Source of the DNA: Lysobacteraceae bacterium
GTDB lineage: Bacteria; Pseudomonadota; Gammaproteobacteria; Xanthomonadales; Xanthomonadaceae
Assembly (NCBI GenBank): GCA_034376725.1
Contig: JAXMJH010000002.1
Span: 12,541-76,540 of the forward strand
Direction of reading: 5' to 3'
DNA: 64,000 nt
Shown: positions 11,312 to 30,118 of the stretch, piece by piece
Layout: each line of letters starts with the position of its first letter
How positions within the stretch are numbered: the stretch's first letter is position 1
Made by a program: the position numbers and the translations under genes
Notes under the pieces: model-generated
Databases searched by the model: none
Seen by the model: only the letters and a program-made list of their open reading frames with translations
What the model was told of the DNA's origin: nothing

Positions 11312-11325
11312 GCCGCAGGAGTGGC

Positions 11326-12015: not shown

Positions 12016-12054
12016 GGGCCCACCAAAAGCGGAATGAATGATGGCTATCAGTAC

Positions 12055-12083: not shown

Positions 12084-12124
12084 TGCGGCCCCGATCACGC
12101 CCGTGGAGGGCTCGGTTCGCGCCG

Positions 12125-13789: not shown

Positions 13790-13982
13790 AGGGAACTCCG
13801 TTTAAATAATTGGAGCGCGGTCGCGGATCGTCCAAAGTATCGCATCGGCGGGTGAACCCCGAGTTAAGCGCGGCGGCCCTTCCGGATATGGAACGGGCTC
13901 GCCGGCTTTGCGAACGCGCGGCGCTGGTAAATATGCGACCACACCCCCATATTTCGAGTTCCCCGACCAACGGAGTGCCCCT

Positions 13983-14243
13983 GTGGCCGACATACAGATT
14001 TATACCACCGCCATTTGTCCTTATTGTCTGGCGGCCAAGCAGTTTTTGACCAGCCGCAACCAGACCTATAGCGAGACCCGCGTCGATATCGACCGCGACA
14101 AGCGCCAGGAAATGGTCACTCTAAGCGGCCGGACCAGCGTGCCGCAGATATTCATCAACGGCACCCACGTCGGCGGCTACGACGACATGGTGGCGCTCAA
14201 CCGGGCCGGCGGCCTGCAACCCTTGCTGGATGCCGCACCATGA
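13983..14243 (+). CDS. grxC: glutaredoxin 3
   Basis: GTG start preceded by GGAG. IQIYTTAICPYCLAAKQFL carries the CPYC active site, followed by TSVPQIFINGTHVGGYDD. Confidence 0.85.
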   Translation: MADIQIYTTAICPYCLAAKQFLTSRNQTYSETRVDIDRDKRQEMVTLSGRTSVPQIFINGTHVGGYDDMVALNRAGGLQPLLDAAP

Positions 14244-14632
14244 CCGACGCCGGCGACAGGGACAGGATTGCCGAGTTCACCGAGTTCAGGAAGCGCATGA
14301 ACGAGCGCATCCTGGCCGAGGACAACCAGGTGGTTCGCCGGTTTTTCGCGCTCGACAGCCAGACCTACCGGCCGGGCGCGCTGGACGGCAAGACCAAGGA
14401 GCTGCTGGGGCTGGTCGCCTCGCTGGTGCTGCGCTGCGACGATTGCATCAGCTACCACGTGGCCCAGTGCCGACAGGCCGGAGCCAGTCGCGAAGAACTG
14501 TTCGAGACATTTTCGGTCGGCCTGGTGGTCGGCGGCTCGATCGTGATCCCTCATCTGCGCCGCGCGGTCGATTTTCTCGACCGGCTGGAATCCGGCGCGA
14601 CGGCGGTGCCCGCCGCGCACGGCCACGAATGA
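14240..14632 (+). CDS. carboxymuconolactone decarboxylase (AhpD-like) family protein
   Basis: 130 aa with the CxxC-containing helix LVLRCDDCISYH typical of the CMD/AhpD fold. Its ATG overlaps the grxC stop (ATGA). Confidence 0.7.
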   Translation: MTDAGDRDRIAEFTEFRKRMNERILAEDNQVVRRFFALDSQTYRPGALDGKTKELLGLVASLVLRCDDCISYHVAQCRQAGASREELFETFSVGLVVGGSIVIPHLRRAVDFLDRLESGATAVPAAHGHE

Positions 14633-14838
14633 CCACGGATCGACAGGCGTTGGGCTGCGCCTGAGCCGCGGCCCGGGTGGCCGGTCGGCATCTGTGCCCG
14701 TACGGCGCATCAGACTGATGTCGAGTGCCTTTTCCGGCATTTTCGCGCGGCTGGCGCGCGGTCGGGCGTACGGTCGGGCATAATTTGTGCACTCGCGGCT
14801 TTTCTTGCCGCGTCTGTCTTAACGAGGTGTCTCAATTC

Positions 14839-15843
14839 ATGAATCAAACCATTGCAGTGCTGCGCGGCGACGGAATCGGCCCGGAAATCATGGATGCAAC
14901 CCTGCATGTGCTCGATGCTCTGCAAGTCGGCCTGGATTACGAGTTCGTCGATGCAGGCCTGGTGGCGCTGGAGAAAACCGGCGAACTGCTGCCTCAGGCC
15001 ACGCTCGATGCCATCGGCAAGCATCGCATCGCGCTGAAGAGCCCGCTGACCACCCCGATCGGCGCCGGCTTCTCGTCGTTGAACGTGGACCTGCGCCGGC
15101 GCTTCGATCTGTACGCCAACATCCGGCCGGCGATCAGTTTTCCCAACACCCGGTCGCGGTACGAGAACATCGACCTGATCACGGTGCGCGAAAATACCGA
15201 AGGCGCCTACATCGGTGAAGGCATGGAAGTGTCGGCCGACGGCGAAGTGGCGACACTCACCCAGAAGATCACCCGACGCAACTCATCGCGCATCGTGCGC
15301 TATGCGTTCGAGCTGGCGCGCCGGCTCGGGCGGAAGAAGGTCACTGCGGTCCATAAGGCGAATATCCTCAAGTCGACCTCCGGCCTGTTCCTGAAGGTGG
15401 CCCGCGAGGTCGCCGAGGAATACCCCGACATCGAGTTCACCGAGATCATCATCGACGCCTGCTGCATGAAGCTGGTCATGACGCCCGAGCAGTTCGACGT
15501 GATCGTCACCACCAATCTGTTCGGCGACATTCTGTCCGACCTGTGTGCCGGGCTGATCGGTGGGCTGGGGCTTGCGCCGGGCGCCAACATCGGTGCCGAT
15601 GCCGCCATTTTCGAAGCCGTGCACGGCTCTGCCCCGGACATTGCCGGGCAGGGCATCGCCAACCCGTGCGCGCTGCTGCTGGCCGCTGCCCAGATGCTCG
15701 ACCACCTGGGCAAGCTCGACAAATCCCGGGCGCTGCGCGCCGCCATCGTCGCCACCCTCGAAGCCCGCGACAGCGTCACGCCGGATCTGGGCGGCAGCGG
15801 AAGCACCGGCTCGTTCGCCAGAGCCATCGCCAGCCGGGTATAG
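14839..15843 (+). CDS. isocitrate dehydrogenase, NAD-dependent type (isocitrate/isopropylmalate dehydrogenase family)
   Basis: Start trimmed to MNQTIAVLRGDGIGPEI. LKSPLTTPIG..SLNVDLRRRFDLYANIRP and NLFGDILSD are family motifs. At 334 aa it resembles IDH3-like NAD-IDHs. Confidence 0.75.
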   Translation: MNQTIAVLRGDGIGPEIMDATLHVLDALQVGLDYEFVDAGLVALEKTGELLPQATLDAIGKHRIALKSPLTTPIGAGFSSLNVDLRRRFDLYANIRPAISFPNTRSRYENIDLITVRENTEGAYIGEGMEVSADGEVATLTQKITRRNSSRIVRYAFELARRLGRKKVTAVHKANILKSTSGLFLKVAREVAEEYPDIEFTEIIIDACCMKLVMTPEQFDVIVTTNLFGDILSDLCAGLIGGLGLAPGANIGADAAIFEAVHGSAPDIAGQGIANPCALLLAAAQMLDHLGKLDKSRALRAAIVATLEARDSVTPDLGGSGSTGSFARAIASRV

Positions 15844-16018
15844 CCCAGGCATTGCCGACTACCTGCGGGCGCGCTTGGGACGACCGGGCGCGCCACACGC
15901 CCCTATGCACACGACCCCACCTTGCAGGGTGAGCGACCTTGCGGGTTGGATCCAGAAGCGGCGAAACGCGTTGATGTGCCTCCCTCCGGCGAGCCAAAGC
16001 ACGATCGCCCGCCAGATA

Positions 16019-16057
16019 TTGACTGCGGTCAAGTGCCAATTGTGAGAAAGGTATTAA
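16019..16057 (+). promoter_or_regulatory. FNR/CRP-family type palindrome TTGAC-TGCG-GTCAA plus candidate -10 TATTAA
   Basis: Perfect TTGA-N6-TCAA dyad at 16019..16032. TATTAA at 16052..16057 would put the dyad centre near -40 of a start about 16065, the geometry of a class II FNR-type promoter. It lies about 100 nt upstream of the first cytochrome gene. Confidence 0.5.
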
Positions 16058-16131
16058 GATCGACCTGAGCCTTTTTCTTACGCGCCTGACGGTCTCCAAG
16101 GCGCATCAAAAAAAACAAAGGAATCAATGCT

Positions 16132-16461
16132 ATGAAAACACATCTCGTTATGGTTCCGGTTCTTGCGCTGGCCTTTGTCGTCTCTCCGCTGCGCGCGGCG
16201 GACGAATCTGCCGCCATGGATCTGATCAAGGCAAGCAAGTGCTCGACCTGCCACAGCGTCGACAAGGACAAGGATGGCCCGTCTTTCAAGAGCGTCGCTG
16301 ATGAGTACCGGGATGATCCCGAGGCCGTGGCCAAGTTGATCGACGTGGTGAGCAAACCGCACATGATCGAGATCGATGGCGAAGAAGAGGAGCACGGAGT
16401 GGTCAAGACCCGGGATGCGGCCAAGATCGAGAACCTCGTCCAGTGGATTCTTTCCCTGTGA
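16132..16461 (+). CDS. periplasmic monohaem class I c-type cytochrome (c551/c8-like; MtoD-like position)
   Basis: Signal peptide, a single CSTCH motif, and a downstream DGPSFKSVADEY resembling the VGPAYKDVA segment of c551. SD AAGGAA lies 8 nt before the ATG. Confidence 0.8.
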   Translation: MKTHLVMVPVLALAFVVSPLRAADESAAMDLIKASKCSTCHSVDKDKDGPSFKSVADEYRDDPEAVAKLIDVVSKPHMIEIDGEEEEHGVVKTRDAAKIENLVQWILSL

Positions 16462-16532
16462 CCGTTTGATCGACCTCCGGCACTCAGCCGGACACTCGAT
16501 CCGTTCGTAAACACTCACGGGACTGCCTCAAA

Positions 16533-17171
16533 ATGAAACGGATATGGAGTGGTATTCGCCGGTTCGGGCTCCTCAAGACCTTCTTGAGCGCGACTCTGGT
16601 GCTGTTCGTCGCTGTTCTTCTGGTGGTTGGCGGAGCTGCCGGATTGGCTTGGACCAACACCGAGGCGTTCTGCATTTCCTGTCACGAAATGAAGGACAAC
16701 GTTTACGCCGAGTTCAAGGGCACCATCCACGACACCAACCGCAGCGGCGTTCGCGCGGTGTGCTCGGATTGTCATGTGCCCCGGCAACCGGTGGATACCA
16801 TCAAACGCAAATTTGCGGCCAGTCTCGAGCTTTATCACGCGCTGCGCGGCACCATCAATACGCCGGAAAAATTCGAGGCGCGGCGTTTCCAGATGGCAGT
16901 CAAGGTCTGGACGCGCATGAAGAAAACCGACTCCATCGAGTGCCGCAACTGTCACCACCGGGACGCCATGAGCCCCGACCTGCAGTCGGCGCGCGCCCAG
17001 CGTCGACACGCCAAGGCGGACGAGGATGGCATGACCTGTATCGACTGCCACTTCGGAATCGCGCACGGCGAACCCACCGGGGATTTCGGGCCGCGCGATA
17101 TTCAGGTGAACCATGGGGCAGTGACTTTGCCGGATCCGGTGGCGGTACGTAACGCATCGGTCGAAAAATGA
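16533..17171 (+). CDS. NapC/NirT/TorC/CymA family membrane-anchored tetrahaem cytochrome c (copy 1)
   Basis: N-terminal TM helix followed by four CXXCH motifs (CISCH, CSDCH, CRNCH, CIDCH). Family context FC.SCHEM and NRSGVRA.CSDCHVP is present. Confidence 0.9.
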   Translation: MKRIWSGIRRFGLLKTFLSATLVLFVAVLLVVGGAAGLAWTNTEAFCISCHEMKDNVYAEFKGTIHDTNRSGVRAVCSDCHVPRQPVDTIKRKFAASLELYHALRGTINTPEKFEARRFQMAVKVWTRMKKTDSIECRNCHHRDAMSPDLQSARAQRRHAKADEDGMTCIDCHFGIAHGEPTGDFGPRDIQVNHGAVTLPDPVAVRNASVEK

Positions 17172-17247
17172 CGCGGATCGGGCCAAGCCATGTGGCGCGG
17201 TCCGATCCGACCTTAGAAGGTCTTAAGTCAAACGTGAGGAACGGATC

Positions 17248-18126
17248 ATGAAGAACACATTGCTGGGGCTGCTCGCCGCCGTCTCGTTGCTGATTGCAGC
17301 GCACGGATCGGCGGGCGCGCAGGAATTGTCGGCCGACGCCCTCGATCGATTGTCGTCTCAAGGCGTCGGCGCTGCGGTCTGCGCCGAATGTCACGAGTCC
17401 GAGGTCACGGTCAGCGTATTCCACAGGGACTGTCAGGCCTGCCATACCAATGCGACCGAGCACGCGACGGCACGCCGGCCGGCACGGGTCGAGCCCGGCA
17501 AGCCGGGCGTCGCACAGTGCGAGGGATGCCACGCCAAAGACGCCGAGCGGATGAATTTTGCCTTCAGCGATCACCACAAGGCGGGCCTGGAGTGCAGCGA
17601 TTGTCATGGCGTGCACGGGCCCAAACTCAAGGTTGGCGGGCAGAGCATCATCCAGCACCGCACCCAGGAAGGCTCGGCGTTGTGCGCAACCTGCCACCAG
17701 GACGTCCTGGCGCGCTTCAATATGCCGTCGCATCACCCGGTGCTGGAAGGCGGGGTTTCCTGTCTCGGCTGTCACGACCCGCATTCGAGCAAGAAGCTCA
17801 GTCTGGCCGACCAGACACAGCAGTGCCTCGATTGCCATCAGCGCCTGCGCGGCCCGCACGTCTTCGAGCACGCTCCAGTGGTCGAGGATTGCGCCAACTG
17901 CCACGATCCACACGGCTCGCCGAATGCCCGACTGCTGGTCGCCGGTCAGCCCATGCTTTGTCTGCAGTGCCACTCGCTGCCCAACAATCGTCACGGCTTG
18001 ACCGGATCCAACGCGCTCACCAGCGCTGCGCTGAGCCAGCGCACGCCGGGTGCGGTACTGCGCGATTGCGTCGCCTGCCATGGTCAGATTCACGGCAGCG
18101 CGCAGGATCAGCACCTTCGCTATTAG
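17248..18126 (+). CDS. MtrA/DmsE/PioA/MtoA family periplasmic decahaem cytochrome c (copy 1)
   Basis: Signal peptide and ten CXXCH motifs in 292 aa (CAECH, CQACH, CEGCH, CSDCH, CATCH, CLGCH, CLDCH, CANCH, CLQCH, CVACH). C-terminal CHGQIHGS resembles the family end. Confidence 0.85.
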   Translation: MKNTLLGLLAAVSLLIAAHGSAGAQELSADALDRLSSQGVGAAVCAECHESEVTVSVFHRDCQACHTNATEHATARRPARVEPGKPGVAQCEGCHAKDAERMNFAFSDHHKAGLECSDCHGVHGPKLKVGGQSIIQHRTQEGSALCATCHQDVLARFNMPSHHPVLEGGVSCLGCHDPHSSKKLSLADQTQQCLDCHQRLRGPHVFEHAPVVEDCANCHDPHGSPNARLLVAGQPMLCLQCHSLPNNRHGLTGSNALTSAALSQRTPGAVLRDCVACHGQIHGSAQDQHLRY

Positions 18127-18203
18127 CGGCTGCACCGGTGGGCTGGCTCACGGCGAGCCCACCGGCAAATCGAACTTGAGAGTTCTGAATTGGAGGCAAT
18201 GCC

Positions 18204-20438
18204 ATGAAAACGCGCACTTCGCTCAGCCTGATGCTGCCGACAGTGTTTCTGCTTGCCGGGGGGCCGCTCTATGCAGCCGACGAGTCGGCGGAAGTTGAAG
18301 GCCAGGTAAACGAGTCGTCCACAGCCACCGAGATAACCGCTGCGACGACGACCACCAGCGAAACCCGTACGACTGGTGAGATCACGACCAAGCTTTACGT
18401 ATTCGACTATTTCAGCGGCTTCGGTGAGGACCGCACCCAGTTCGTTGAGCGATACAACTATCAGAAGGGGTTCTCCGGCGATCGTCGGTCCGATTTCTTC
18501 GTGGATGCCGACTTCCGCCTGAAAGTGGTGGACGATGATCGCGAGCTGCTGAGCATCGAGCGTCTCGGATTCGGTCGTCACAATCAACGCGGCACGCTGG
18601 AAGCCAATCGCGAGACCTTCGGTATCGAAGCGTACTACTCGCAGTTCCGTTCGGCGACCGGCGGTCTCGACTGGTTGTTCAGCCCGAACCAGGTGCCGGG
18701 CGGCACCGAGCTGGCCGCGTTTTTCCCGGCGCAGACCAACACCAACTCCGGCTTCCTTGCCCAGTTCAATGACGACTCCGGTCGCACCCGGTTCGACGTC
18801 AAGCGGGTCAGCTATGGCGCTGCGGTAAAAATCAAGCCGGTGGTGTTTGAGGATCGAGGGTCGATCAAGGTCGGCTACGACGGCTATCAGCGCACCGGAA
18901 ACCAGCTCACCAGTTTTGTTCTGGGCGGAGGCGACATCCGGGAGGCCGGGACCAATGCCCAAACCAGCGGCCGGGTGTTGCAGCGCTGGCGTGGCATCAA
19001 CCAGGACATCGACGAAAGCGTGAATCGCTTCAAGTTGACCCTGGCCGGAACGCCGGGCAACAAGTTGGTATTGGCCTACGATTTCTCGTGGGACAAGTTC
19101 AACAACAACGGCACGGATCTGATTCACAGCGACGTGGTGCCGTTCCTGGGCTCGGAGTGGCAATACAACACGGGCGGCGATGCCACCCGGCCGCTCGGCT
19201 TCGCGCCGGAGAGTCATCAATTCAGACACGGGCTGAGGGCGTCGCGCACGTTCGGAAAGACCGCGATTTCCGGTGGCTTCGGTCAGTCCTGGCTTGAACA
19301 GGACAGCTTCACCCAGCCGCAGACGCGCGCCGGTTTTGTTGGCAAGACCAGCACCGACAATGCGTTCTTCAACATCGCGAGCAATGTGGTGGCTGGCGTC
19401 AGGCTGGAGGGCTTCCTGCGCTACTACCAGCGCGACAACGACTCCACCTTTCCTGCGCCAGGTCTGATCGACCCGTTCGCTGGCGAGCAACTTGGCGTTC
19501 GCGTCAATGAGATCGAAACCTACACCTACGGCGCGAATGCCTCGTGGCGCAGCCGAACGCTCGATTCGAACTTCATCCTCGGGTGGAAGCACGAGGACAA
19601 GCAGCGCGATCTGACCTTTTCCGGTGCATCGGTCGATCCGACGCTGAACGGCATCACCGCCGAGCGCTCGTTGTTCCGCGAGGACACCGAGTACGACGAG
19701 GTGTCGCTGAAGATCGTTTCCCGCCTGGGCAACAGTACGACTCTGCGTCTGACGCCGTCCTACCTGTGGGCCGACAAGGTCGGCCTGGTGACCGATCCGG
19801 AAACTTCGTTCCAGTTCAAAAGCAATCTGGGACACGTGACCGAGGCAGGTACCTTGTTCAACGCCTATTACAACTACCGTGGCCGGAAAAACAACGACCT
19901 GTCGTTCCTCGGCACCGACGGCAACCTGGCAACCCAGGACCTCGATCGCTCCACCCAGTCGGCCGGGCTATCGGTCGGTTGGAACCCGAGCGAGTGGATC
20001 AGCGCGCAGACCAGCATTGCCTGGCTTCAGGACGACTTTACGGCGCTGTTCTACGGCAGCAATCGCCGTCGATTCGAAGGACCGAACAACCCGGTGATCT
20101 TTTTCCTCCGAGACGAATCCAGTTACGACGTCGACACCTATGTCGCAACGGCCTCGGCCGACTGGCAGGCCAGCGACAGTTTGAGCTACCAGTTCGGTTA
20201 CACATTTTCGAGATCCGACGGCAAGACCGCCAGCGGCGTGATTTTCGATGAGCTTCCGACCCAGGACGGCAGAATCGACAATACGCTGCATAGCCTCCAG
20301 GTTGGCTTGCGCTACCAGTACACCCAAAAGATCGGCGTTTCGGGCATGTATGTCATCGATTACTACACCGATGACGCGTTCGATGATCTGACCGGTGGCG
20401 TACACTCGCTGATGCTGGGGCTGACGGTTGCATTCTGA
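18204..20438 (+). CDS. putative MtrB/PioB-like outer-membrane beta-barrel porin (copy 1, divergent)
   Basis: 744 aa with a signal peptide and a Thr-rich linker. Alternating beta-strand-like composition rich in Y/G/D/N, with terminal aromatic ...LGLTVAF. It sits immediately after the decahaem gene. The assignment rests mainly on context and composition. Confidence 0.6.
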   Translation: MKTRTSLSLMLPTVFLLAGGPLYAADESAEVEGQVNESSTATEITAATTTTSETRTTGEITTKLYVFDYFSGFGEDRTQFVERYNYQKGFSGDRRSDFFVDADFRLKVVDDDRELLSIERLGFGRHNQRGTLEANRETFGIEAYYSQFRSATGGLDWLFSPNQVPGGTELAAFFPAQTNTNSGFLAQFNDDSGRTRFDVKRVSYGAAVKIKPVVFEDRGSIKVGYDGYQRTGNQLTSFVLGGGDIREAGTNAQTSGRVLQRWRGINQDIDESVNRFKLTLAGTPGNKLVLAYDFSWDKFNNNGTDLIHSDVVPFLGSEWQYNTGGDATRPLGFAPESHQFRHGLRASRTFGKTAISGGFGQSWLEQDSFTQPQTRAGFVGKTSTDNAFFNIASNVVAGVRLEGFLRYYQRDNDSTFPAPGLIDPFAGEQLGVRVNEIETYTYGANASWRSRTLDSNFILGWKHEDKQRDLTFSGASVDPTLNGITAERSLFREDTEYDEVSLKIVSRLGNSTTLRLTPSYLWADKVGLVTDPETSFQFKSNLGHVTEAGTLFNAYYNYRGRKNNDLSFLGTDGNLATQDLDRSTQSAGLSVGWNPSEWISAQTSIAWLQDDFTALFYGSNRRRFEGPNNPVIFFLRDESSYDVDTYVATASADWQASDSLSYQFGYTFSRSDGKTASGVIFDELPTQDGRIDNTLHSLQVGLRYQYTQKIGVSGMYVIDYYTDDAFDDLTGGVHSLMLGLTVAF

Positions 20439-20482
20439 CGATTCCGCGTCCCGGAATACCGCAAGACAGATTGGTTGAATCC

Positions 20483-20510
20483 AACCCTCTCCCGCTGGGA
20501 GAGGGTTTTG
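20483..20510 (+). terminator. rho-independent terminator after module 1
   Basis: AACCCTCTCCC-GCT-GGGAGAGGGTT (11-bp perfect stem) followed by TTTG, 45 nt after the stop at 20438. Confidence 0.75.
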
Positions 20511-20891
20511 CGCTGGAGAGCCGTTGGGCCGCACAGTCCACCGCGCTTTTCGCCGTATCTACTGACCTTTTCCGGGCTTTTGGGCCGAATTTCTCTCTGA
20601 GGCGCAAGGCGCTCTCCGGGCGTTGGTAGGCCGGACTTCAAATCCCTCCTTGAGAGTCGTCTCCGCCGATTCCTGAACCATGGTGGCGCTATGGCTCGTA
20701 GAGCCGCCGAACATCTGTCCTTACGGCCGACAATCGATTGGACCGGCAATGCCCGGCAGGCCACCGGTTGCTTCAAGCGTGTGCGCCAGGGCGGTCATGG
20801 CCGTTTCGCTCGATTGCTGTTCTGCCTTGGTGCGCCGCTCTCAGACGGCCCCGCCGCGCCTCTCACTGATTGATTCGACGCCCCGCCAGGA

Positions 20892-20905
20892 TTGACATCA
20901 ATCAA
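20892..20905 (+). promoter_or_regulatory. second FNR/CRP-type palindrome TTGAC-ATCA-ATCAA
   Basis: TTGA-N6-TCAA, matching 9 of 10 positions of TTGAT-N4-ATCAA, about 140 nt upstream of the second NapC-like gene. A weak -10 candidate TGTTAG at 20925..20930 has the same spacing to the dyad as in module 1. A TGATTGAT at 20867..20874 is the inverted complement of ATCAATCA at 20897..20904. Confidence 0.45.
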
Positions 20906-21042
20906 CTGGCGGATGTAAAGACTGTGTTAGCTTGTGCCGTGCCGAATACCCCTAAAAGGCCCGGACAACGGCCCGCAGAGGACGCAAGACCCAGAGCCGC
21001 GCTGGAAGCCTTCAGCGCCGCGACCAGAGGGAGATCATTCGG

Positions 21043-21651
21043 ATGGCACGTATTTTCGAGCACTGGCGCGAGGCGTTTCGCAAGTCGCGCGTTGCGTTTC
21101 TTGGCCTCCTGCTGATCGGCCTGTTGCTGGGAGCAATCGCGCTGGCCGGCACGGCGGTGGTGGTGGAGTCGACCAGCACCCTGGAATTCTGTACCTCCTG
21201 TCACGAGATGGAGGCCTTCGTATTCCAGGAATACAAGGAAACCCACCATTACCAGAATCGCACCGGCGTACGCGCCGAGTGCTCCGACTGCCATGTGCCG
21301 AAGCCGCCGTTGGCCAAGATGGCGCGCAAGATCCGCGCGACCTTCACCGAGGTTCCCGGCCATTTCCTGGGCCGGATCGACACTCGGGAGAAGTTCGAGG
21401 CGCATCGGCTGACCATGGCCGAGCGGGTCTGGGCCGAGATGAAGGCCAACGATTCGCGCGAGTGCCGCGATTGCCATGATCGCGAGGCGATGCTGATGGA
21501 CAAGCAGCGCCCACGCTCGCGCAATCAGCACGAAAGCGCCATCGCCAGCGGCGAAACCTGCATCGATTGCCACAAGGGCATCGCCCACAAGAAACCCACG
21601 CTGCCCGAAGACGAGGCCAGCGAAGAGGAAGAGACCGATTTCAGCCTGTGA
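21043..21651 (+). CDS. NapC/NirT/TorC/CymA family membrane-anchored tetrahaem cytochrome c (copy 2)
   Basis: TM helix plus four CXXCH motifs (CTSCH, CSDCH, CRDCH, CIDCH). It is clearly paralogous to the 16533..17171 product and has an acidic C-terminal tail. Confidence 0.9.
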   Translation: MARIFEHWREAFRKSRVAFLGLLLIGLLLGAIALAGTAVVVESTSTLEFCTSCHEMEAFVFQEYKETHHYQNRTGVRAECSDCHVPKPPLAKMARKIRATFTEVPGHFLGRIDTREKFEAHRLTMAERVWAEMKANDSRECRDCHDREAMLMDKQRPRSRNQHESAIASGETCIDCHKGIAHKKPTLPEDEASEEEETDFSL

Positions 21652-21698
21652 TTCGACCCATCCCCGGGTCAGTGCATGCGCATCCAGTGGAGACCGTT

Positions 21699-22664
21699 AT
21701 GAACACAACCAACGTTAGTCAGATTTCTGTCTGCGGCTTGCCGCGCAGCCTGCTCGCCGTCGCGCTGATGCTTGCCGCCGGCTGGGCGCAGGCGGTCGAC
21801 TGGAGTGGCGTTCCGGCAACCGACGTGCCGCTGTTCTATCCCGGACAGGCGTCATGGGAATGGGTGATGACCGAAAAGGATCACAGCGGCGCACCCAACT
21901 TCCGCAGCGGGAAGAACTGCAAAGCCTGTCATGACGGCGAACAGGGCGATATCGGCAACACCATCGTGTCCGGCGAGAAACTGGTGCCGGCCCCTGTCGC
22001 TGGCCGTCCCGGAGGAATCTCGCTGCATGTGCAGACCGCCCGCGATGCCGAACGGTTGTATTTCCGGCTGCGCTGGAAAGCCGGCTCAGGCGCGCCAGCG
22101 CTGGACGCCGACACCGCCGCGCGGGTGACTGTGATGATCGACGACGGCACGGTAAAAGAAGCCGCGCGGGCCGGCTGCTGGGGCAGCTGTCACGACGACA
22201 GCATCGGCATGGCCAGTGCATCGGCCGACGGAAGAACCGCCAAATATCTGAGTGCTTCGCGCAGCAAACTCACCCGGCAGGGCGGTGGCGAGAACATCAA
22301 GCCGGCTGCGGATCTGGCGGCGCTCAAGTCGAGCGGCGCCTTTCTCGAATACTGGCAGGCCAAGCTCAATCCCGGACAGCCGGCCAAGGCCGTGTCCGGC
22401 TACATCCTCGACAAGCGCCACGAGACGACGGGCACGGCGGTGGCCGCCGATGCCACGTTCGAGGGCGGCGAGTGGACGGTGGTGTTGAGTCGTCCGCTGG
22501 CGGCCGCTGGCGAAGGCAGCAAGTCGATCGTGGCCGGCAAGACCTACAACATCGGCTTCGCCGTGCATGACGATCACGCCGACCACAGGCATCACCACGT
22601 TTCGTTCGAATACACCCTCGCGCTCGACGGAAGCGGCAGCGATTTTGTTGCCAGGGCGAAGTAG
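21699..22664 (+). CDS. periplasmic EB_dh-like (ethylbenzene dehydrogenase gamma / type II DMSO-reductase haem subunit-like) domain protein with c-type haem motif(s)
   Basis: Start trimmed to the ATG at 21699 (GGAG 8 nt upstream) with signal peptide ...AAGWAQA|VD. One CKACH, one CWGSCH (CX3CH) and a His cluster HDDHADHRHHH. Segments LYFRLRWKA, FLEYWQAK, GGEWTVVLSRPL and GKTYNIGFAVHDD resemble the EB_dh domain pattern from memory. Confidence 0.65.
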   Translation: MNTTNVSQISVCGLPRSLLAVALMLAAGWAQAVDWSGVPATDVPLFYPGQASWEWVMTEKDHSGAPNFRSGKNCKACHDGEQGDIGNTIVSGEKLVPAPVAGRPGGISLHVQTARDAERLYFRLRWKAGSGAPALDADTAARVTVMIDDGTVKEAARAGCWGSCHDDSIGMASASADGRTAKYLSASRSKLTRQGGGENIKPAADLAALKSSGAFLEYWQAKLNPGQPAKAVSGYILDKRHETTGTAVAADATFEGGEWTVVLSRPLAAAGEGSKSIVAGKTYNIGFAVHDDHADHRHHHVSFEYTLALDGSGSDFVARAK

Positions 22665-22715
22665 CCCGAAATCCGGAGCAGTCGAGGCAGACATCGCAAG
22701 TATCTGGAGAACGTC

Positions 22716-23693
22716 ATGAAAAAAGCCCTTGCACTCTTGCTCGGGACCGGACTGTCGGCCATCGTGCTGCTAGCCTCAGGGGTCGGCCCTGCCGCGGCGC
22801 AGTTGCTGAGCGAGCAACCGGAGAACCAGTCCGGAAAAACCGGCGCAGAGGCGGTGCGTACCTGCACCCGCTGTCACGACGAATCCAGCGAATATCCGGT
22901 GCTGTCGATCCTCAAGTCCAAGCACGCGGTGGTGGCCGACGGCCGCACCCCGTTCGCCGACAAGGCCTGTGCTTCCTGTCACGGCGCCAGCCTCGATCAC
23001 ATGGAGGCGGTGGGCGACGGCGCCACGCGGGCAGCGCCGGACATCGTTTTCTCGAAGTCCGGTCCGACTTCAAAGCACGATCAGAACGCCGTGTGCATGG
23101 ATTGCCACAAGGGCAGTGCGCGCATCCACTGGCAGGGCAGCGTCCACGAGCAGCAGGACGTGGGCTGCGTCGACTGTCACCAGTCGCATGTCGGCGATGA
23201 CCCGGTGTTGGCCGCACAGACCCAGTCCGACCAGTGCTTTGCCTGCCACAAGGAAAAGCGCGCCGAGATTCATCGCCCGTCCAGTCACCCGATTCGCGAA
23301 GGCAAGGTGGCATGCAGCGACTGCCACAACCCGCATGGTTCCAACGGTCCCAAGCTGCTGACCAAGGCCACGCTCAACGAGACCTGCTACGACTGCCACA
23401 CCGAGAAGCGCGGCCCGTTCCTGTGGGAGCACCAGCCGGTGCGCGAGGATTGCTCGCTGTGCCACAAGCCGCATGGCTCGGTGCATGACAACCTGCTGGT
23501 CACGCGCGGCCCGTGGCTGTGCCAGCAGTGTCATATGGCGCAGTTCCACCCGAGCACGGCCTTCAGCGGCACCGGCCTGCCGGGCGCCAGCACACCATCG
23601 GGAGCGCAGCAGGTGCTGGGCAAGAACTGCCTCAACTGCCATTCGCAGATCCATGGTTCCAATCACCCGTCCGGTGTGCGCAAGACGCGTTAG
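22716..23693 (+). CDS. MtrA/DmsE/PioA/MtoA family periplasmic decahaem cytochrome c (copy 2)
   Basis: Signal peptide and ten CXXCH motifs in 325 aa (CTRCH, CASCH, CMDCH, CVDCH, CFACH, CSDCH, CYDCH, CSLCH, CQQCH, CLNCH). Canonical family C-terminus CLNCHSQIHGSNHPSG. Confidence 0.9.
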   Translation: MKKALALLLGTGLSAIVLLASGVGPAAAQLLSEQPENQSGKTGAEAVRTCTRCHDESSEYPVLSILKSKHAVVADGRTPFADKACASCHGASLDHMEAVGDGATRAAPDIVFSKSGPTSKHDQNAVCMDCHKGSARIHWQGSVHEQQDVGCVDCHQSHVGDDPVLAAQTQSDQCFACHKEKRAEIHRPSSHPIREGKVACSDCHNPHGSNGPKLLTKATLNETCYDCHTEKRGPFLWEHQPVREDCSLCHKPHGSVHDNLLVTRGPWLCQQCHMAQFHPSTAFSGTGLPGASTPSGAQQVLGKNCLNCHSQIHGSNHPSGVRKTR

Positions 23694-23767
23694 CGCGGAC
23701 GAAACGACAGATGCCGGCCCGCCAAGGCGTGGCCGGCGAAGCGAAAAACGCAACGGCGAGGTGTCCC

Positions 23768-26086
23768 ATGAAACGCAATCGCAACCCATCAAGCTCCCAG
23801 AACCGGGATGGCCCGGTCCGCGTGCTGGCCCGCCGGCCGCTCTACCTGCTGCTGATGATGAGTCTGGCCATGCCGGCCGTCGCCCTGGCTCAGGACGATG
23901 ATCCGTTTGCGCTCGACGAGCCAACCGCCCCGGCGATGAGCGAAGCACAGATCAGGGATCTGACCGAAATCCGCAGCGTGGTCGAGATCGGCATCGGTTT
24001 CGTCACCCAGGATTCGTTCCGCTTCGGCAAGTTCAACGGTCTGGAGGACGACGGCCCCTACGGCGTTTTCAATCTCGACTACTACAAGCGCGGCGCGTGG
24101 GACGGCGACAGCGCAGATTACGTGCGCATCCGGGCCGACAACCTGGGTCTCGATTCGCGTTCGGTCGATGCCGAAGTCGGCCGACAGGGCGACTATCGGG
24201 TTCGGGTGAGTTACGACGAGATTCCCAGCAATCGCAGCGATTCGGCGCAGACCATCTTTCAGGGTGCCGGCGGCAACAACCTCACCCTGCCTCCGGACTG
24301 GGTGCCGGCGCAGAACACGGCGGGAATGACCAATCTGCTTTCCAGCCTGCGTGATGTCGAGCTGCGCACTGAGCGTCAGCGGTTCGGCGCGGGCCTGGAC
24401 AAGCTGCTTCCCGGCGACCTGTCGTTCTCGATCGATTACCAGTACGAGGAAAAGGACGGCCTGAAAGGTTTGGCCGGCACGTTCGGCAATACCGGCGGCA
24501 ATCCGCGTTCGGTGCTGCTGCCCGAGCCGGTCGACTACGAAACCCACAAGATCGATCTGGTCGGTCGCTACATCCAGGACAAGATGCAGGTCGAGCTGCG
24601 CTATCACGCCTCGATTTTCAACAACGACAACGCCTCGCTGCGCTGGCAGAACCCGTTCAGTGCGATCAATGGCTGGGTGCCTTCGGCGGGTTTCCCCACC
24701 GGCGTGGGCGAGATGGCCCTGCCGCCCGACAACACCTTCCATCAAGGTACGGCGCTGTTCGGCTACAACTTCGATAATCGCAACCGCATCGTCGCCGACA
24801 TCGCCATCGGACGGATGAGTCAGAACGACCCATTCCTGGCGTTCACCGTCGACCCGATTCTCGCGGCGGGGATCACCGAACCACTGCCCCGGGATTCGCT
24901 GGATGGCCGCATCGATACCATGGTGGCCAACCTGCGTTATTCCGGTCGGCTGACCGACCGGCTGAACCTCAACGCCAGCTACCGCTACGACGAGCGCGAC
25001 AACGAGACGCCCAGGGATCGCTACGCGATGATTTCGGCCGACTCGATCGCACAGGACCTCAGCCCGACCAGCAGCCGCGTTCGCTTCAATCAACCCTACA
25101 GCTACGAGGAGAACCAGCTCCGGCTGGACCTGAACTACCGGCTGGCCGCCCGTACCCGGGTCAATGTGCTCGGCGAATATCGCGATATCGATCGCACATT
25201 CACCGAGCGCAACAGCTCCGAGGAGTGGACCTACGGCGCCGGGCTGATCCATCAGCTGTCCGACACGCTGGACCTGAATCTGAAGCTCTCGCGCGCCGAG
25301 CGGGATGGTTCGCAGTACGACGGCACGGCGCCGTTCCGCTCCGGGTTCACGCCGGAGCATGTCGCCTCGCTGCCCGGTGGTTTCGAGAACCCGCCGCAAC
25401 TGCGTCGGTTCCACCTGGCCAACCGCGACCGCGATCTGGCGGGCATTCTGGCCACCTGGACACCGTCGGAGTTCTGGTCGGTCGGCCTGGACGTGAACTA
25501 CAGCCGGGACGATTACACCGACTCCGAACTGGGTCTGACCGGCGCGCGGATTCGAGCCTATACCCTGGAATTCAACGCCACGCCGGTGCGCGATCTGTCG
25601 ACCTACGCGTTCTTCACCCACGAGGAAAACGACTATGACCAGAACGGCGTGAGCTTTCAGGGCGGAGCGAACCGCGTCAACCAGGTGAACGATCCGAATC
25701 GGTTCTGGCAGGCGCTGCACCGCGAGCGTATCGATACCGCCGGCTTGGGCTTCGCCTGGAAGCCCAATGACGGTCGCTACCAGTTCGGTCTCGACCTGGT
25801 GAGCACGCTGTCTAAGGCCGATGTTGCGGTAAGCACGGGATCGGCGCTCAGCTCGGCGCCGCTGCCCAGCAGTCGCGTTCGGCTCAACTCGGCCACGCTG
25901 TTCGGTACCTTCGCAATCACCGACGATCTGGCCGTGCGCGGCGACATCTGGCACGAGCGCTATCGCAGCGAGGACTTCGCGTTGGATATCCCGGCCAACC
26001 AGCTGGCCAACGTGATCCTGTTCGGCGAAGAAGCGCCCGACTTCGATGTGACCTTCGTCAGCCTGTCGCTGATCTATCGGTTCTGA
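23768..26086 (+). CDS. MtrB/PioB family decahaem-associated outer-membrane beta-barrel protein (copy 2)
   Basis: Start trimmed to the ATG at 23768, with signal peptide ...AVALA|QDD. The N-terminal pattern FRFGKFNGLEDDGPYGVFNLDYY...NLGLDSR...GDYRV...YDEIP is typical of the MtrB/PioB family. C-terminus LSLIYRF. Confidence 0.85.
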   Translation: MKRNRNPSSSQNRDGPVRVLARRPLYLLLMMSLAMPAVALAQDDDPFALDEPTAPAMSEAQIRDLTEIRSVVEIGIGFVTQDSFRFGKFNGLEDDGPYGVFNLDYYKRGAWDGDSADYVRIRADNLGLDSRSVDAEVGRQGDYRVRVSYDEIPSNRSDSAQTIFQGAGGNNLTLPPDWVPAQNTAGMTNLLSSLRDVELRTERQRFGAGLDKLLPGDLSFSIDYQYEEKDGLKGLAGTFGNTGGNPRSVLLPEPVDYETHKIDLVGRYIQDKMQVELRYHASIFNNDNASLRWQNPFSAINGWVPSAGFPTGVGEMALPPDNTFHQGTALFGYNFDNRNRIVADIAIGRMSQNDPFLAFTVDPILAAGITEPLPRDSLDGRIDTMVANLRYSGRLTDRLNLNASYRYDERDNETPRDRYAMISADSIAQDLSPTSSRVRFNQPYSYEENQLRLDLNYRLAARTRVNVLGEYRDIDRTFTERNSSEEWTYGAGLIHQLSDTLDLNLKLSRAERDGSQYDGTAPFRSGFTPEHVASLPGGFENPPQLRRFHLANRDRDLAGILATWTPSEFWSVGLDVNYSRDDYTDSELGLTGARIRAYTLEFNATPVRDLSTYAFFTHEENDYDQNGVSFQGGANRVNQVNDPNRFWQALHRERIDTAGLGFAWKPNDGRYQFGLDLVSTLSKADVAVSTGSALSSAPLPSSRVRLNSATLFGTFAITDDLAVRGDIWHERYRSEDFALDIPANQLANVILFGEEAPDFDVTFVSLSLIYRF

Positions 26087-26103
26087 TCCCCAGCGAAGGG
26101 ACG

Positions 26104-26143
26104 GCCTCGCCTCGCGCGTCACTCTCCGCGCGCGGGGCGAGGC
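26104..26143 (+). terminator. GC-rich hairpin after module 2 (possible terminator, no U-tract)
   Basis: GCCTCGCC(T)CGCGCG - loop - CGCGCG(G)GGCGAGGC, an interrupted stem of about 14 bp starting 18 nt after the stop. It is followed by GATCGC rather than a T-run. Confidence 0.4.
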
Positions 26144-26367
26144 GATCGCTTGATGCGATCAGGGTTGTTGCATTCTGAGGAATGGCCTTCGGCCGATGCT
26201 GGCTCAGAGATGCGGCGGGCCGGCCCGCTTGTCCCGGATCGAAGCGTGGCGCGAATGCCGCCGATCGAAACCCCACACTGTCACGCCTGATCCAGACTCC
26301 CGGCCTTCGGCCCGGACTGGGCTTTACGGTCTACCTGAATGGCGCTGCCAAGTGGCGCTGCCCGCCG

Positions 26368-27186
26368 TTAACGTGTGCTGCCAGCCGGTGCGTTGCGCCA
26401 GAAAGGATCCAGCGCGCTGATCGCCGAGCGTCCCGGCCGATAGGCGGCTGCCAGCGCTCCGTGCAGGTAATGCCCGGCCTGTTCGCAGGCCGCTGCCAGC
26501 GGCAGGCCGAGGCAAAGATTGGCGGCAATGGCGGATGCCAGCGTGCATCCGCTGCCGTGGCCGTCGATCATCAGGCGCGGGTGGCGAAATCGATGGACCC
26601 TGCCGCCCTCGGACAGGCGATCGATGACCGGATCGCCGGGCAAATGACCGCCTTTGAGCAGCACCGCGCCGGCGCCCAGCGTGGTCAGTTCGTCGAGCGC
26701 CTGCTCGGCCTGGTCATGATCGGCGATGGCGCGGCCGACCAGTAGTTCGGCTTCCGGAATATTGGGGGTTATCACCGTGGCCATGGGCAACAGCCGGCGC
26801 AGGGCGTCGAGCGCGGCCGGATCCAGCAGGCGCGCGCCGGAGCTGGCCACCATGACCGGGTCGAGCACGATGCTGTCCGGGCGATAGTGGCTCAGCGCTG
26901 CCGCCACGGCCTCGATGAGTTCGGCGCTGGCCAGCATGCCCAGCTTGACCGCACCGATGTCGAAGTCGTCGAACACGGCATCGATCTGCGCGCGCAGAAA
27001 ATCGGCAGGCGGCGTATGCACCGCGGTCACCGCGCGGGTGTTCTGCGCGGTCAGCGCAGCGATGGCGCTCAAGCCGTGAAGACCGTGCGCGGCAAAGGTT
27101 TTCAGATCGGCCTGGACACCCGCGCCGCCGCCCGAATCCGAGCCGGCGATGGTGAGCACGCAGCGCCAAGGCGGTGATGCGGTCAT
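26368..27186 (-). CDS. thiD: hydroxymethylpyrimidine/phosphomethylpyrimidine kinase
   Basis: Only the last 272 aa of track ORF 26368..27840 are real. [22 protein letters not shown] and [14 protein letters not shown] are ThiD motifs. The ATG at 27186 overlaps the stop of the upstream GNAT gene (ATGA). Confidence 0.9.
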
Positions 27187-27824
27187 TTTTGCAGTTCCTC
27201 GAACAGATCGTCCAACTCGCTTCGCGCCCTTTGCAGCAAGACCGGGCGGGCCTTCTGCGGCCGGGTCAGGTCGAGCTCCACCCGAGCCACGCCGCCACTG
27301 TCGGGCACGTGGATGTGCTCGAAACCCAACTGCCGGGCCAGCGTCAGCATGGCGGTATTTTCTTCGAGGACATCTCCGTAGATCCGTTTCAGCTTGCGTC
27401 GCCGGGCGTAACCGATCAATCGCGTCATCAGCAGCCGGCCGAGGCCGAATCCGGCAACGAAGTGGGAGACCAGGATGGCGAACTCGGCCTCGCACCGATC
27501 CACATCGATCGACAACCGGGCGACCGCGCCAACCAGCGCCTCGCCGGGAGGCAGCGGCTCGGCCGCCACCAGCACGAACGCACGGCCTTGTTCCGGATGG
27601 GTGAGATCGTGAAGGTAATCGGGCGACAGCGACTTGACCAGATGCAGGTAACGCAGGCGGATCTCTTCGGGGCTCAGCAGACTGAATGCCGAGTCGATCG
27701 GGCCAGCGTCTTCGGGGCGGATACGCCGCAGCCACAGCACGCGGCCATTGGCCAGGCGCAAACGCTCGTTCCAGGCGCCGGGCAGCTTCTGTCGACGGAT
27801 AGGGATGACGGGTGAGCTTTTCAC
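27183..27824 (-). CDS. GNAT family N-acetyltransferase
   Basis: 213 aa. The acetyl-CoA motif-A-like segment is [37 protein letters not shown]. Confidence 0.7.
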
Positions 27825-27885
27825 ATGCCAAGACTGCCATACCGGTCGGAACGGGCGCTCTAATGTGTTCAGCCGCCAGCCGGTC

Positions 27886-29043
27886 TCAGCCGCTCAAGGC
27901 CGCGAGAACCGCCGCCACGGTCCCTCTGAGTTCGGGAACCCAGCGCAGGACGATCACCAGATCGTGAACCTCGTCGATGTAGATATAGTGACCGCCGAAG
28001 CCTGCGGCCCAGTAGGCCGACTCCGGCGCCTCCGGAATCGCCTGCCGGCCGGTGTTCAACCACCACAGGAAGCCATAGTCTGGCTTGGCCTCGGTGGGTG
28101 CGCGGATCAGATCGAACCAGGCATCGGGCAGCAATCGCTGCTCGCCCCAAACCCCCCGCCGCAGCATCAGCAGGCCGAACCGGGCATGGTCCTCGGCGCC
28201 GACGAACATGCCGCCACCGAAATGGCCGCCGCCGGAAACCGACTGGATCTTTTGGCCGTCCAGTGTCAACCAGGAGTTCTCGTAGCCGTGCCAGCGCCAG
28301 GTCGGACTGGCGCCGATCGGATCCATGATGCGCTCGCGAAGCAGCTCGGGCAGCGGCTGGCGGGCGACGTGAAGCAGGCTCAGCGCCAGCAGATTGATGC
28401 GTACGTCGTTGTATTTGAAGCGGCTTCCGGGCGCGCTGAGCGGGCGGTTGGGCCAGTCGGCCTCGGTCTCGCCCTCCGGTCGGTCGGCCCAGTCCGGAAC
28501 CTCCCACAGCGTGCCCTGCCAGTCCGAAGTCTGCTGCAACAGGTGGCGCCAGGTGATCGGCGCGTTTTGCTCCGATGCAAACAGGCCCGGCTCGATATAA
28601 CCGGCGACGCGATGATCGAAATCGGCAATCCGGCCATCGGCCCAGAGCAGGCCGGCGACCGTGGCCAGGTAGCTTTTCACCGCGCTGAAGGTCATGTCCG
28701 GGCGCTGCACGTCGCCCCACTCGGCCACCTTGTAGCCGTGGCGCAGGATGATGCCGGCGCTGCCCACCCGGTCGCGGGTCGGTCCGAGAATCCGGTAGTT
28801 CGGTTCGCGACCGGTGTAGTTGTCGAGCAGCACCTGGCGCATGTCCGAGGGTTCGGTCACGGCACGGGCCTGGGCAAATGCCACGGCTTGCGTCAGCTTG
28901 CCGGCATCGAAGCCCAGCTCGGCCGGGCTTCGTGATTGCCAGTCGTGCCGGGGCGGAACGTAATCGCCGGTGCCTTGGGCGAGCGCGCCGCCAGCAGCGA
29001 GCGCGGCGACCAGCAGCAGGAGCGTTCGGATGCGGGCGATCAT
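27886..29043 (-). CDS. serine hydrolase, beta-lactamase/transpeptidase-like family (secreted)
   Basis: Start trimmed to MIARIRTLLLLVAALAAGGALA (signal peptide). SxxK motif in TFSAVKSYL. Confidence 0.7.
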   Translation of the reverse strand: MIARIRTLLLLVAALAAGGALAQGTGDYVPPRHDWQSRSPAELGFDAGKLTQAVAFAQARAVTEPSDMRQVLLDNYTGREPNYRILGPTRDRVGSAGIILRHGYKVAEWGDVQRPDMTFSAVKSYLATVAGLLWADGRIADFDHRVAGYIEPGLFASEQNAPITWRHLLQQTSDWQGTLWEVPDWADRPEGETEADWPNRPLSAPGSRFKYNDVRINLLALSLLHVARQPLPELLRERIMDPIGASPTWRWHGYENSWLTLDGQKIQSVSGGGHFGGGMFVGAEDHARFGLLMLRRGVWGEQRLLPDAWFDLIRAPTEAKPDYGFLWWLNTGRQAIPEAPESAYWAAGFGGHYIYIDEVHDLVIVLRWVPELRGTVAAVLAALSG

Positions 29044-29151
29044 GGTCTGCACTCCGGTGACAGGTCGTACACGATAACCCGAACCGCAGGCGTCGTTCAC
29101 TGCTGCAGGGCAGACGATCCAGCACGCTGCCGGGCTCGATGAAGCGCCCGC

Positions 29152-30009: not shown

Positions 30010-30118
30010 CGCGCCAGACTACCCGATCCCCGAACGCGGGGGCTGTTCGCCCGACGGTTCTGGCGTTAGTCTCGACGCTCTTTCCGGCATCGGCCGGCTT
30101 GCATGATGGGGAGCGGGC

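Follow-up and report, generated by a model that had tools for sequence, protein, structure and literature searches.

Two tandem porin–cytochrome modules of different deep lineages at one housekeeping site in a Lysobacteraceae bacterium

Microbial iron cycling, corrosion and bio-electrochemical technology all depend on porin–cytochrome conduits, and both the factors that set the direction of their electron flow and the identity of their partners are debated. What, then, is to be made of a locus that seems to carry two of them side by side? The 64,000-nucleotide (nt) stretch of a Lysobacteraceae bacterium analysed here (from a genome labelled as metagenome-assembled; assembly GCA_034376725.1, contig JAXMJH010000002.1, positions 12,541-76,540 of the forward strand; hereafter the window) holds eight plus-strand open reading frames (ORFs), all with coding-type base composition, that fall into two four-gene groups. 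A first-pass annotation of the window had proposed that these groups are non-identical porin–cytochrome modules between two housekeeping genes, an IDH-like gene and thiD; both neighbours are there, all eight ORFs lie where it placed them, and Pfam and NCBIfam matches confirm the families. Our reading, which we consider probable, is that the groups are two operons encoding two independent electron conduits across the cell envelope. The genes, with protein lengths in amino acids (aa), are as follows.

g1, 16132-16461, plus strand: MtoD-like periplasmic monohaem cytochrome c, 109 aa; one CXXCH
g2, 16533-17171, plus strand: tetrahaem member of the NapC/NirT family, CymA/ImoA type, with a membrane helix at the N-terminus, 212 aa; four CXXCH
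g3, 17248-18126, plus strand: type-1 decahaem cytochrome, a distant MtrA/MtoA relative, 292 aa; ten CXXCH
g4, 18204-20438, plus strand: type-1 barrel, a predicted large MtrB-like beta-barrel, 744 aa; no CXXCH
g5, 21043-21651, plus strand: second tetrahaem member of the NapC/NirT family, CymA/ImoA type, 202 aa; four CXXCH
g6, 21699-22664, plus strand: EB_dh/DOMON-like secreted haem protein, 321 aa; one CXXCH and one CX3CH (CWGSCH)
g7, 22716-23693, plus strand: canonical MtrA/MtoA-type decahaem cytochrome, 325 aa; ten CXXCH
g8, 23768-26086, plus strand: canonical MtrB/MtoB/PioB-type barrel, 772 aa; no CXXCH

Module 1 comprises g1-g4 (16132-20438) and module 2 comprises g5-g8 (21043-26086). The mechanical ORFs for g6 and g8 begin earlier (21567 and 23513); the starts adopted here have ribosome-binding sites, and the lengths that follow from them are those of the gene calls in a near-identical contig. 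PF03264 matches g2 and g5, PF09459 matches g6, the doubled-CXXCH multihaem family PF09699 matches g3 and g7, and PF11854 matches g4 and g8. A direct count over the eight genes gave 30 CXXCH motifs plus one CX3CH, the figure already reported in the first-pass annotation. The signal peptides of g3 and g7, as well as the membrane helices of the NapC-type proteins, were judged by eye from the translations.

By curated family models, the core of module 2 is of the canonical MtrAB/MtoAB type. The decahaem g7 scores 297.8 bits against TIGR03508 (cut-off 192.2), which places it in the MtrA/MtoA/PioA/DmsE family, and it matches Shewanella MtrA (6R2Q_A) at 273 bits; the barrel g8 scores 465.3 bits against TIGR03509 (cut-off 240), as an MtrB/PioB member, extends over model positions 3-635 of the 635 in PF11854 (504.7 bits) and matches MtrB (6R2Q_B) with an E-value of 9.2e-70. 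As the reference for identities we used the mto locus of Sideroxydans lithotrophicus ES-1 (L040; L numbers denote fetched loci), which was recovered through the MtoD sequence: g7 is 46% identical to its MtoA, and g8 is 28% identical to its MtoB (E 5e-38; both BLASTP). The PDB table of the search tool labels the MtrA chain 6R2Q_A 'Cystathionine beta-synthase', which is misleading. The two tetrahaem proteins resemble each other (52% identity) about as closely as either resembles ES-1 CymA/ImoA, with g5 at 51% identity to the latter (PF03264, 226.5 bits) and g2 at 49% (PF03264, 214.7 bits, under the TIGR02161 cut-off). Both lie below the NapC and TorC equivalog cut-offs, so neither is a NapC or TorC in the strict sense; both are NapC/NirT-family proteins of the CymA/ImoA type.

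Module 1 repeats the same design with different material. Its first product, g1, is by sequence an MtoD homologue, 44% identical to native ES-1 MtoD (BLASTP) and matching the MtoD structure 4XXL with an E-value of 4.1e-20. The haem motif of g1 is C37-C40-H41, and residues H41 and H88 align with the MtoD haem ligands His47 and His95 (PMC4412085), so that bis-histidine ligation is predicted from the alignment. The earlier description of g1 as a monohaem class I cytochrome is thereby confirmed as to the cytochrome and made more exact as to the family. The decahaem g3 shares with g7 the general features of such proteins (ten CXXCH motifs, a signal peptide and a length of about 290-360 aa), yet at 166.4 bits it falls short of the TIGR03508 cut-off of 192.2 and is not a member; it is 33% identical to MtoA and 32.5% identical to g7 (BLASTP), and matches MtrA 6R2Q_A at 110 bits. 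The decahaems of all fetched loci split cleanly into 30 of the g3 type (type 1) and 52 of the g7 type (type 2), and a neighbour-joining tree with midpoint rooting puts g7 together with MtrA of Shewanella and MtoA of Sideroxydans, and g3 in the other deep clade.

The barrel g4 is more remote still. It finds no match to TIGR03509 at E-values up to 0.01, no BLASTP match to MtoB or g8, and no phmmer match to MtrB in the PDB. It does match PF11854 at 66 bits (Pfam cut-off 23) over positions 22-463 of 635, and a profile–profile comparison of its family with the canonical barrels (hhalign) gives 97% probability and an E-value of 1e-10 over 469 columns. The AlphaFold2 model of g4 is a large barrel with a predicted local distance difference test score (pLDDT) of 76.7, for which the top Foldseek match is MtrB 6R2Q_B (E 9.5e-20, template modelling (TM) scores 0.58/0.66), followed by TonB-dependent receptors (E 1.6e-10, TM about 0.35). 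Taken with the model, these matches establish remote homology between g4 and the MtrB-type barrels and predict an MtrB-like fold. Neither barrel thus appears to be the unrelated porin for which the first-pass annotation had allowed, as g8 passes TIGR03509 and g4 is predicted to fold like MtrB. The g4 family is small, with 93 representatives at E ≤1e-3 among 1.84 billion sequences.

On these comparisons, module 1 is assigned to a separate deep-branching decahaem and barrel lineage, accompanied by MtoD-like and CymA-like proteins. The first-pass annotation had placed both modules in the MtrAB/MtoAB/PioAB type; this stands for module 2, which passes the curated cut-offs, and not for module 1, which fails them and belongs to its own deep clade. 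Its further view that the locus holds two complete, strongly diverged sets, each with a NapC/CymA-type tetrahaem protein, a periplasmic carrier, a decahaem and a large barrel, is upheld. We considered and rejected two known alternatives for the identity of module 1. The best NCBIfam matches of g3 and g4 are to the GSU2203/GSU2204 families of Geobacter, at scores (NF041028, 169.6 bits; NF041027, 45.4 bits) far below the cut-offs of 325 and 350, and g4 moreover is without any CXXCH motif. Nor does module 1 fit the PCC3 or PCC4 clusters, which have a conserved five-helix inner-membrane protein and, in PCC3, also very large surface cytochromes (He et al. 2017, PMC5566968), both of which are missing here. 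A recent duplication as the source of the two modules was likewise rejected, given an identity of 32.5% between the decahaems and barrels that BLAST fails to align. Relatives of module 1 vary in form: four proteins of about 1,190 aa (P0083-P0085 and P0337) have a g4-like barrel as their C-terminal 700 aa and an N-terminal part of about 470 aa that matches PF13505 and PF10082, and type-1 cytochromes of Verrucomicrobia and Opitutia (L030, L031, L032 and L035) have eight CXXCH motifs instead of ten in about 250 aa.

Is such a tandem unusual, as the first-pass annotation supposed? The surveys make it less so than was claimed: both modules recur as conserved cassettes across many metagenome-assembled genomes (MAGs) and contigs, and two further Lysobacteraceae loci (L010 and L011) place a module-1 cassette beside a canonical decahaem–barrel pair. 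A scan of species-representative genomes for the g4 family returned 30 loci, all from MAGs, in Lysobacteraceae, Lysobacterales, Thioalkalivibrio, Sulfuritalea, Rhodocyclales, Thiobacillus, Methylotenera and Gallionellaceae, as well as in Verrucomicrobia, Opitutia, Acidobacteria and Desulfurivibrio. A type-1 decahaem lies directly 5′ of the g4-type barrel in 28 of these 30 loci, the other two being truncated, and the full mtoD-napC-decahaem-barrel cassette is present in 14 of them and in L122; the rest have the decahaem–barrel pair. One cassette stands alone beside ccmABCEFGH, the genes for cytochrome c maturation (L001:14035-20623, Gammaproteobacteria bacterium RIFCSPHIGHO2_12_FULL_63_22), and in the closest relative of module 1 (L122:1008-9639), with a barrel at about 71% identity, frdABCD and a gene for a UbiE-family methyltransferase come after the cassette. 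For module 2, a metagenome scan for the g6 family gave 80 loci, from which the following counts use those that were evaluable: NapC lies directly 5′ of the EB_dh-like gene in 61 of 65, a type-2 decahaem directly 3′ in 45 of 53, and a barrel after that in 26 of 30. None of the 80 loci contains a module-1-type gene.

How the two modules came to stand together can be followed in close relatives. Four contigs at about 97% identity to the window (L003-L005 and L042) share its flanks and module 2 and are without module 1. In L003, positions 1-8941 correspond to window positions 6897-15837 at 97.3% identity and positions 9114-20966 to window positions 20813-32679 at 96.6% (blastn), which delimits one segment.

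15838-20812: presence/absence segment of 4,975 bp with all of module 1 (blastn against near-identical contigs)

In place of this segment the four contigs have 172 bp with a terminator-like hairpin, and the left break falls exactly at the stop codon of the dehydrogenase gene. Module 1 is, in other words, a presence/absence polymorphism within one species-level population. A more distant Lysobacteraceae locus, L011, is syntenic with the window, with a dehydrogenase 79% and a ThiD 64% identical to those here; across the locus, module genes are 54-73% identical and flanking genes 64-80%. There the module-1 cassette is followed (L011:12752-20792) by genes for a tetrahaem protein of 444 aa, an MtoD-like cytochrome, an MtoC/CbcL-like protein of 716 aa that combines nine haems with a cytochrome b561 domain, and a canonical decahaem and barrel beside thiD. 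Together with L010, this indicates that loci with both types recur in Lysobacteraceae and that accessory genes are swapped at the same site. Because L011 has two modules at this site, we favour the view, drawn from these sequence comparisons, that module 1 was ancestral here and was lost in the sister strains. The G+C content of the segment (0.60-0.61, versus 0.65-0.66 in the flanks) hints at the opposite history, a gain by recombination. In agreement with the first-pass annotation, which had seen no marks of a mobile element, no integrase was found and no target-site duplication or terminal or flanking direct or inverted repeat was convincing; no tRNA gene lies within 24 kb of the locus. The sole inverted repeat near a boundary, of 13 nt, was judged to be a product of chance. 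The earlier statement that the origin of the locus is unclear is therefore narrowed to a defined segment.

The same data bear on a more mundane explanation, that the tandem is an assembly chimera in which module 1 belongs to another organism of the metagenome. The absence of module 1 from the nearest relatives and the lower G+C content of the segment are what such an artefact would produce, but the segment is internal: some 9 kb to the left of it and some 12 kb to the right show homology at 97% identity, so that two chimeric joins would be needed. In the more distant L011, too, these flanking genes enclose both a module-1 cassette and a canonical pair, with L010 also pairing the types. We regard a chimera as very improbable.

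Whether the two modules are separate transcription units, as our reading of two conduits has it, can be judged from their spacing and signals. Gaps between genes within each group are 47-77 nt, the spacer between the groups is 604 nt, and hairpins follow both barrels; the groups are therefore two operons. Four features are relevant.

16019-16032: FNR/CRP-family-type palindrome, TTGACTGCGGTCAA, 113 nt 5′ of the g1 start
20485-20509, plus strand: terminator-like hairpin, CCCTCTCCC-GCT-GGGAGAGGG then TTTT, with a 9-bp GC-rich stem, 46 nt past the g4 stop
20892-20905: FNR/CRP-family-type palindrome, TTGACATCAATCAA, 151 nt 5′ of the g5 start
26104-26143, plus strand: strong hairpin (16-bp stem) 3′ of g8 that probably closes operon 2 (from a fold of 26087-26200)

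The first and last of these are the end points that the first-pass annotation had given to the locus, which turn out to be real features. Scans for consensus sigma-70 promoters and terminators found nothing above shuffled sequence, and the hairpins were found by folding; the one at 20485-20509 escapes the consensus terminator scan as it has only four T. No Rfam family matches within 15000-27000. The palindrome TTGA-N6-TCAA occurs five times in the window against 0.3 expected, a number reached in none of 100 shuffles, the other three copies lying at 49582-49595, 60363-60376 and 61545-61558. The copy 5′ of g5 is identical at -150 in L003 and L042. In relatives we scored the form TTGA[C/T]-N4-[A/G]TCAA 5′ of the first gene, for which the background is 2.2% per 380-nt stretch. 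It precedes mtoD in 10 of 16 module-1 cassettes (8 of 14 non-redundant), comprising all eight non-redundant Gammaproteobacteria and none of the six Betaproteobacteria, and it precedes NapC in 22 of 63 module-2-type loci. This conservation may be read as a phylogenetic footprint of an FNR-family regulator, and both operons would probably be switched on at low oxygen.

The component that most sets module 2 apart is g6. It matches PF09459 at 123.9 bits, and its AlphaFold2 model (pLDDT 73) finds EbdC (2IVF_C, E 1.2e-9) and NxrC of Kuenenia (7B04_C, E 1.1e-6) as its first Foldseek matches, followed by CBM9 and DOMON folds. These relatives are gamma subunits of type II DMSO-reductase enzymes, and g6 is not one of them, as it scores 45.9 bits against TIGR03477 (cut-off 169.85) and 21.5 against the EbdC model NF042980 (cut-off 400); it appears, from the modelled structure, to share only the fold with them. 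Unlike EbdC and NxrC, moreover, g6 is not accompanied by the alpha and beta catalytic subunits of a molybdoenzyme, no genes for which are present at the locus, and its constant neighbour is a NapC-type gene. A further difference concerns the haem. The gamma subunits bind haem b; across 25 homologues of g6 (53-72% identity) residues C74, C77 and H78 and residues C160, C164 and H165 are invariant, along with several His, Met and Lys residues, and these CXXCH and CX3CH motifs point to covalent c-type haem. We therefore think that g6 is probably a c-type haem protein built on an EB_dh scaffold, with haem on both motifs. The family is large (more than 1,000 clusters at E ≤1e-5), and it includes longer members in related settings: a 446-aa EB_dh-domain protein directly follows a type-1 barrel (L034:2430-3770), and one of 547 aa lies near a NapC–EB_dh pair beside a sigma-54 two-component system (L008:14622-16265). 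Joint Genome Institute (JGI) annotations label many EB_dh-like proteins (P0088 and others) 'cytochrome c-type protein NapC', which is misleading.

With what would g6 work? The gene neighbourhoods suggest that it is a periplasmic partner of the NapC-type protein g5. The linkage to NapC is tighter than that to the decahaem; the NapC–EB_dh pair occurs without MtrAB in three loci (L008, L087 and L109); and in four contigs (L081:1201, L082:8003-9262, L088:8000-9235 and L089:2146) the pair directly precedes the gene for a Cyc2-like protein of about 410 aa with a signal peptide. All four of these proteins carry the signature PAF[A/S]R.T…CxxCH….PxL, in which A/S stands where the published motif has Q/K (PMC8406198), and they suggest a NapC–EB_dh–Cyc2-like cassette. 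A precedent from ES-1, where the small cytochrome gene pmcA adjoins imoA and encodes the redox partner of ImoA (PMC13390432), lends support to the logic of adjacency for g5 and g6. We propose that NapC and the EB_dh-like protein form a portable inner-membrane and periplasmic unit, elsewhere joined to MtoAB-type pairs and, in four contigs, to Cyc2-like cytochrome-porins.

A different role for g6 would be that of the terminal oxidoreductase of module 2, exposed at the cell surface and sitting, as a functional counterpart of MtrC, on the barrel's outer end. The decahaem follows directly 3′ in 45 of 53 loci, and there is a parallel among archaeal EB_dh-like haem proteins, as CbsA is extracellular and its model, TIGR03154, matches g6 weakly. 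Such archaeal proteins have been linked to Fe(II) oxidation, with FoxC modelled as EbdC-like (PMC10654088), and the place of g6 directly 5′ of the decahaem is that of mtrC in mtrCAB clusters (PMC8805035). Against this, adjacency to NapC (61 of 65) is tighter than adjacency to the decahaem, the pair is found without MtrAB and with Cyc2-like proteins, and g6 has an ordinary Sec signal peptide with no conserved lipobox. We thus consider a surface role unlikely and keep to g6 as a periplasmic partner of g5.

If the two modules are conduits, the route through each would run as follows. The membrane-anchored NapC/CymA-type tetrahaem protein would pass electrons to or from the quinone pool; a small secreted haem protein, g1 in module 1 and g6 in module 2, would ferry them across the periplasm; and the decahaem, set inside an MtrB-like barrel of about 26 strands, would lead them through the outer membrane. 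As MtrC-type surface cytochromes are absent from both modules, the barrel's outer end would then itself contact a redox partner outside the cell. The first-pass annotation had already noted the lack of MtrC/OmcA-type cytochromes and of Cyc2, and this proved correct for the window: no further ORF (of at least 100 aa and coding-like base composition) contains CXXCH, PF22113 matches weakly and then inside the periplasmic cytochromes, no MtrC/OmcA-type surface cytochrome being found, and the Cyc2 signature (published as PxFAR[Q/K][T/Y] followed by CXXCH and PxL, with a protein length of at least 365 aa; PMC8406198) is missing, even in a relaxed form, from all six reading frames.

These parts can be set beside known systems. 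ES-1 Mto (mtoD-mtoA-mtoB-cymA/imoA-pmcA) likewise has a decahaem with an MtrB-like barrel, no surface cytochrome, and a NapC-family tetrahaem protein and a small periplasmic cytochrome in the cluster. The gene order here is different; in module 2 an EB_dh-like protein takes the place of the small monohaem cytochromes of ES-1, and MtoD is absent; and module 1 combines homologues of MtoD and CymA with a decahaem (33% identity) and a barrel (no BLAST match) of another deep clade; none of the eight proteins has a BLASTP match to PmcA. With Shewanella MtrCAB/CymA (6R2Q) the modules share the decahaem-in-barrel core; they differ in having no MtrC/OmcA-type cytochrome, in placing a NapC-type gene inside each operon and in their periplasmic carriers. 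Archaeal CbsA and FoxC, like EbdC and NxrC, share the PF09459 fold of g6. Porin–cytochrome conduits are known to have modular accessory proteins, horizontal transfer and duplicates, and several conduits or quinol dehydrogenases at one locus have been described in Shewanella (mtrDEF-omcA-mtrCAB), Geobacter (ombB-omaB-omcB and ombC-omaC-omcC) and Rhodoferax ferrireducens (two cymA and mtrABC; PMC8805035, PMC6295460, PMC5566968). Those cases are duplications of one cluster type, whereas the present locus joins two deep clades with different accessory proteins. In a literature search that was mostly without subscription journals, and which is weak evidence, we found no report of MtoA in Xanthomonadales or Lysobacteraceae and none that places a component resembling EB_dh, DOMON or ethylbenzene dehydrogenase in mto or mtr clusters; no search was aimed at the lineage of module 1.

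In which direction would electrons move? Sequence cannot show direction, and we lean slightly towards uptake, in which extracellular Fe(II), reduced minerals or humics would be oxidized and the electrons delivered to the quinone pool under micro-oxic or denitrifying conditions. We do so because of the lack of an MtrC-type protein, the MtoD homologue in module 1 and the link of NapC–EB_dh pairs to Cyc2-like proteins. The same architecture could also run outward, as an outlet of anaerobic respiration from quinol to Fe(III), Mn(IV), humics or comparable acceptors outside the cell, and this is a credible if less probable alternative. NapC/CymA-type proteins are classically quinol dehydrogenases, FNR-type boxes stand 5′ of both operons and of those of relatives, the closest relative of module 1 continues with frdABCD and the UbiE-family gene, and MtoA and PioA form no function-specific clade apart from MtrA (PMC8805035). 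Characterized reducing systems, however, have an MtrC/OmcA-type cytochrome, which the window is without, as MtoAB and PioAB systems are (PMC5566968, PMC8805035); the MtoD homologue of module 1 also speaks against outward flow, as do the four contigs in which NapC–EB_dh is joined to Cyc2-signature proteins, Cyc2 being a demonstrated Fe(II) oxidase (PMC8406198).

Several considerations weigh against the account of two uptake conduits given here. The analysis is computational throughout. For g6, the methionine that ligates haem b in EbdC corresponds to a leucine in a single phmmer alignment, a CX3CH motif does not guarantee bound haem, and confidence in the model (pLDDT 73) is moderate at best. 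FNR-type boxes together with NapC-type quinol dehydrogenases are equally typical of outward-flow anaerobic respiration, which the frdABCD genes of L122 also fit, and MtrAB-type conduits have proved reversible in the laboratory (PMC8805035). Finally, in ES-1 MtoD was found to interact with neither ImoA nor MtoA (PMC13390432), so that a role for g1 as the shuttle of module 1 may be wrong; g1 may instead feed a high-potential acceptor.

We advance a broader proposal with greater reserve, as a tentative one. The NapC protein and its c-type haem partner of EB_dh fold would be an undescribed and widespread unit, interchangeable between MtoAB-type and Cyc2-type iron oxidases; module 1 would be a new sister family to all characterized MtrAB, MtoAB and PioAB systems, so far met only in uncultured bacteria; and the two conduits, co-induced at low oxygen, would operate at different potentials or in opposite directions. 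If this were true, the organism would offer a natural test of what determines flow direction in porin–cytochrome conduits, and the strains offer a natural experiment in that one or two conduits of two deep lineages occupy one housekeeping site in one population. There are practical consequences as well. The EB_dh-like protein is invisible to marker-gene tools built on MtoA, MtrB and Cyc2, and if proteins of the g6 type are periplasmic partners, models of Mto-type pathways miss a common component. Likewise, because the module 1 lineage fails the curated models TIGR03508 and TIGR03509, surveys that use them would undercount electron-transfer potential in Lysobacterales, Rhodocyclales, Thiobacillus, Verrucomicrobia and others.

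The surroundings of the locus are those of a core chromosomal region. The gene on the left, of the isocitrate/isopropylmalate-dehydrogenase family, lies at 14839-15843 and thiD on the right at 26368-27186 on the minus strand, and the remaining window is core housekeeping in content, including ppx, ppk, phoBR, htpG, mutS, recA, alaS, tig, clpX, lon and ppiD. Clustered at 50169-51299, just 5′ of tig, are seven genes for tRNAs (Ser, Arg, Pro, Arg, His, Lys and Leu), and Val and Asp tRNA genes lie at 57894-58128, after lon. Because the mechanical ORF of tig, with its start at 51221, runs into the tRNA-Leu gene, tig must in fact begin further downstream.

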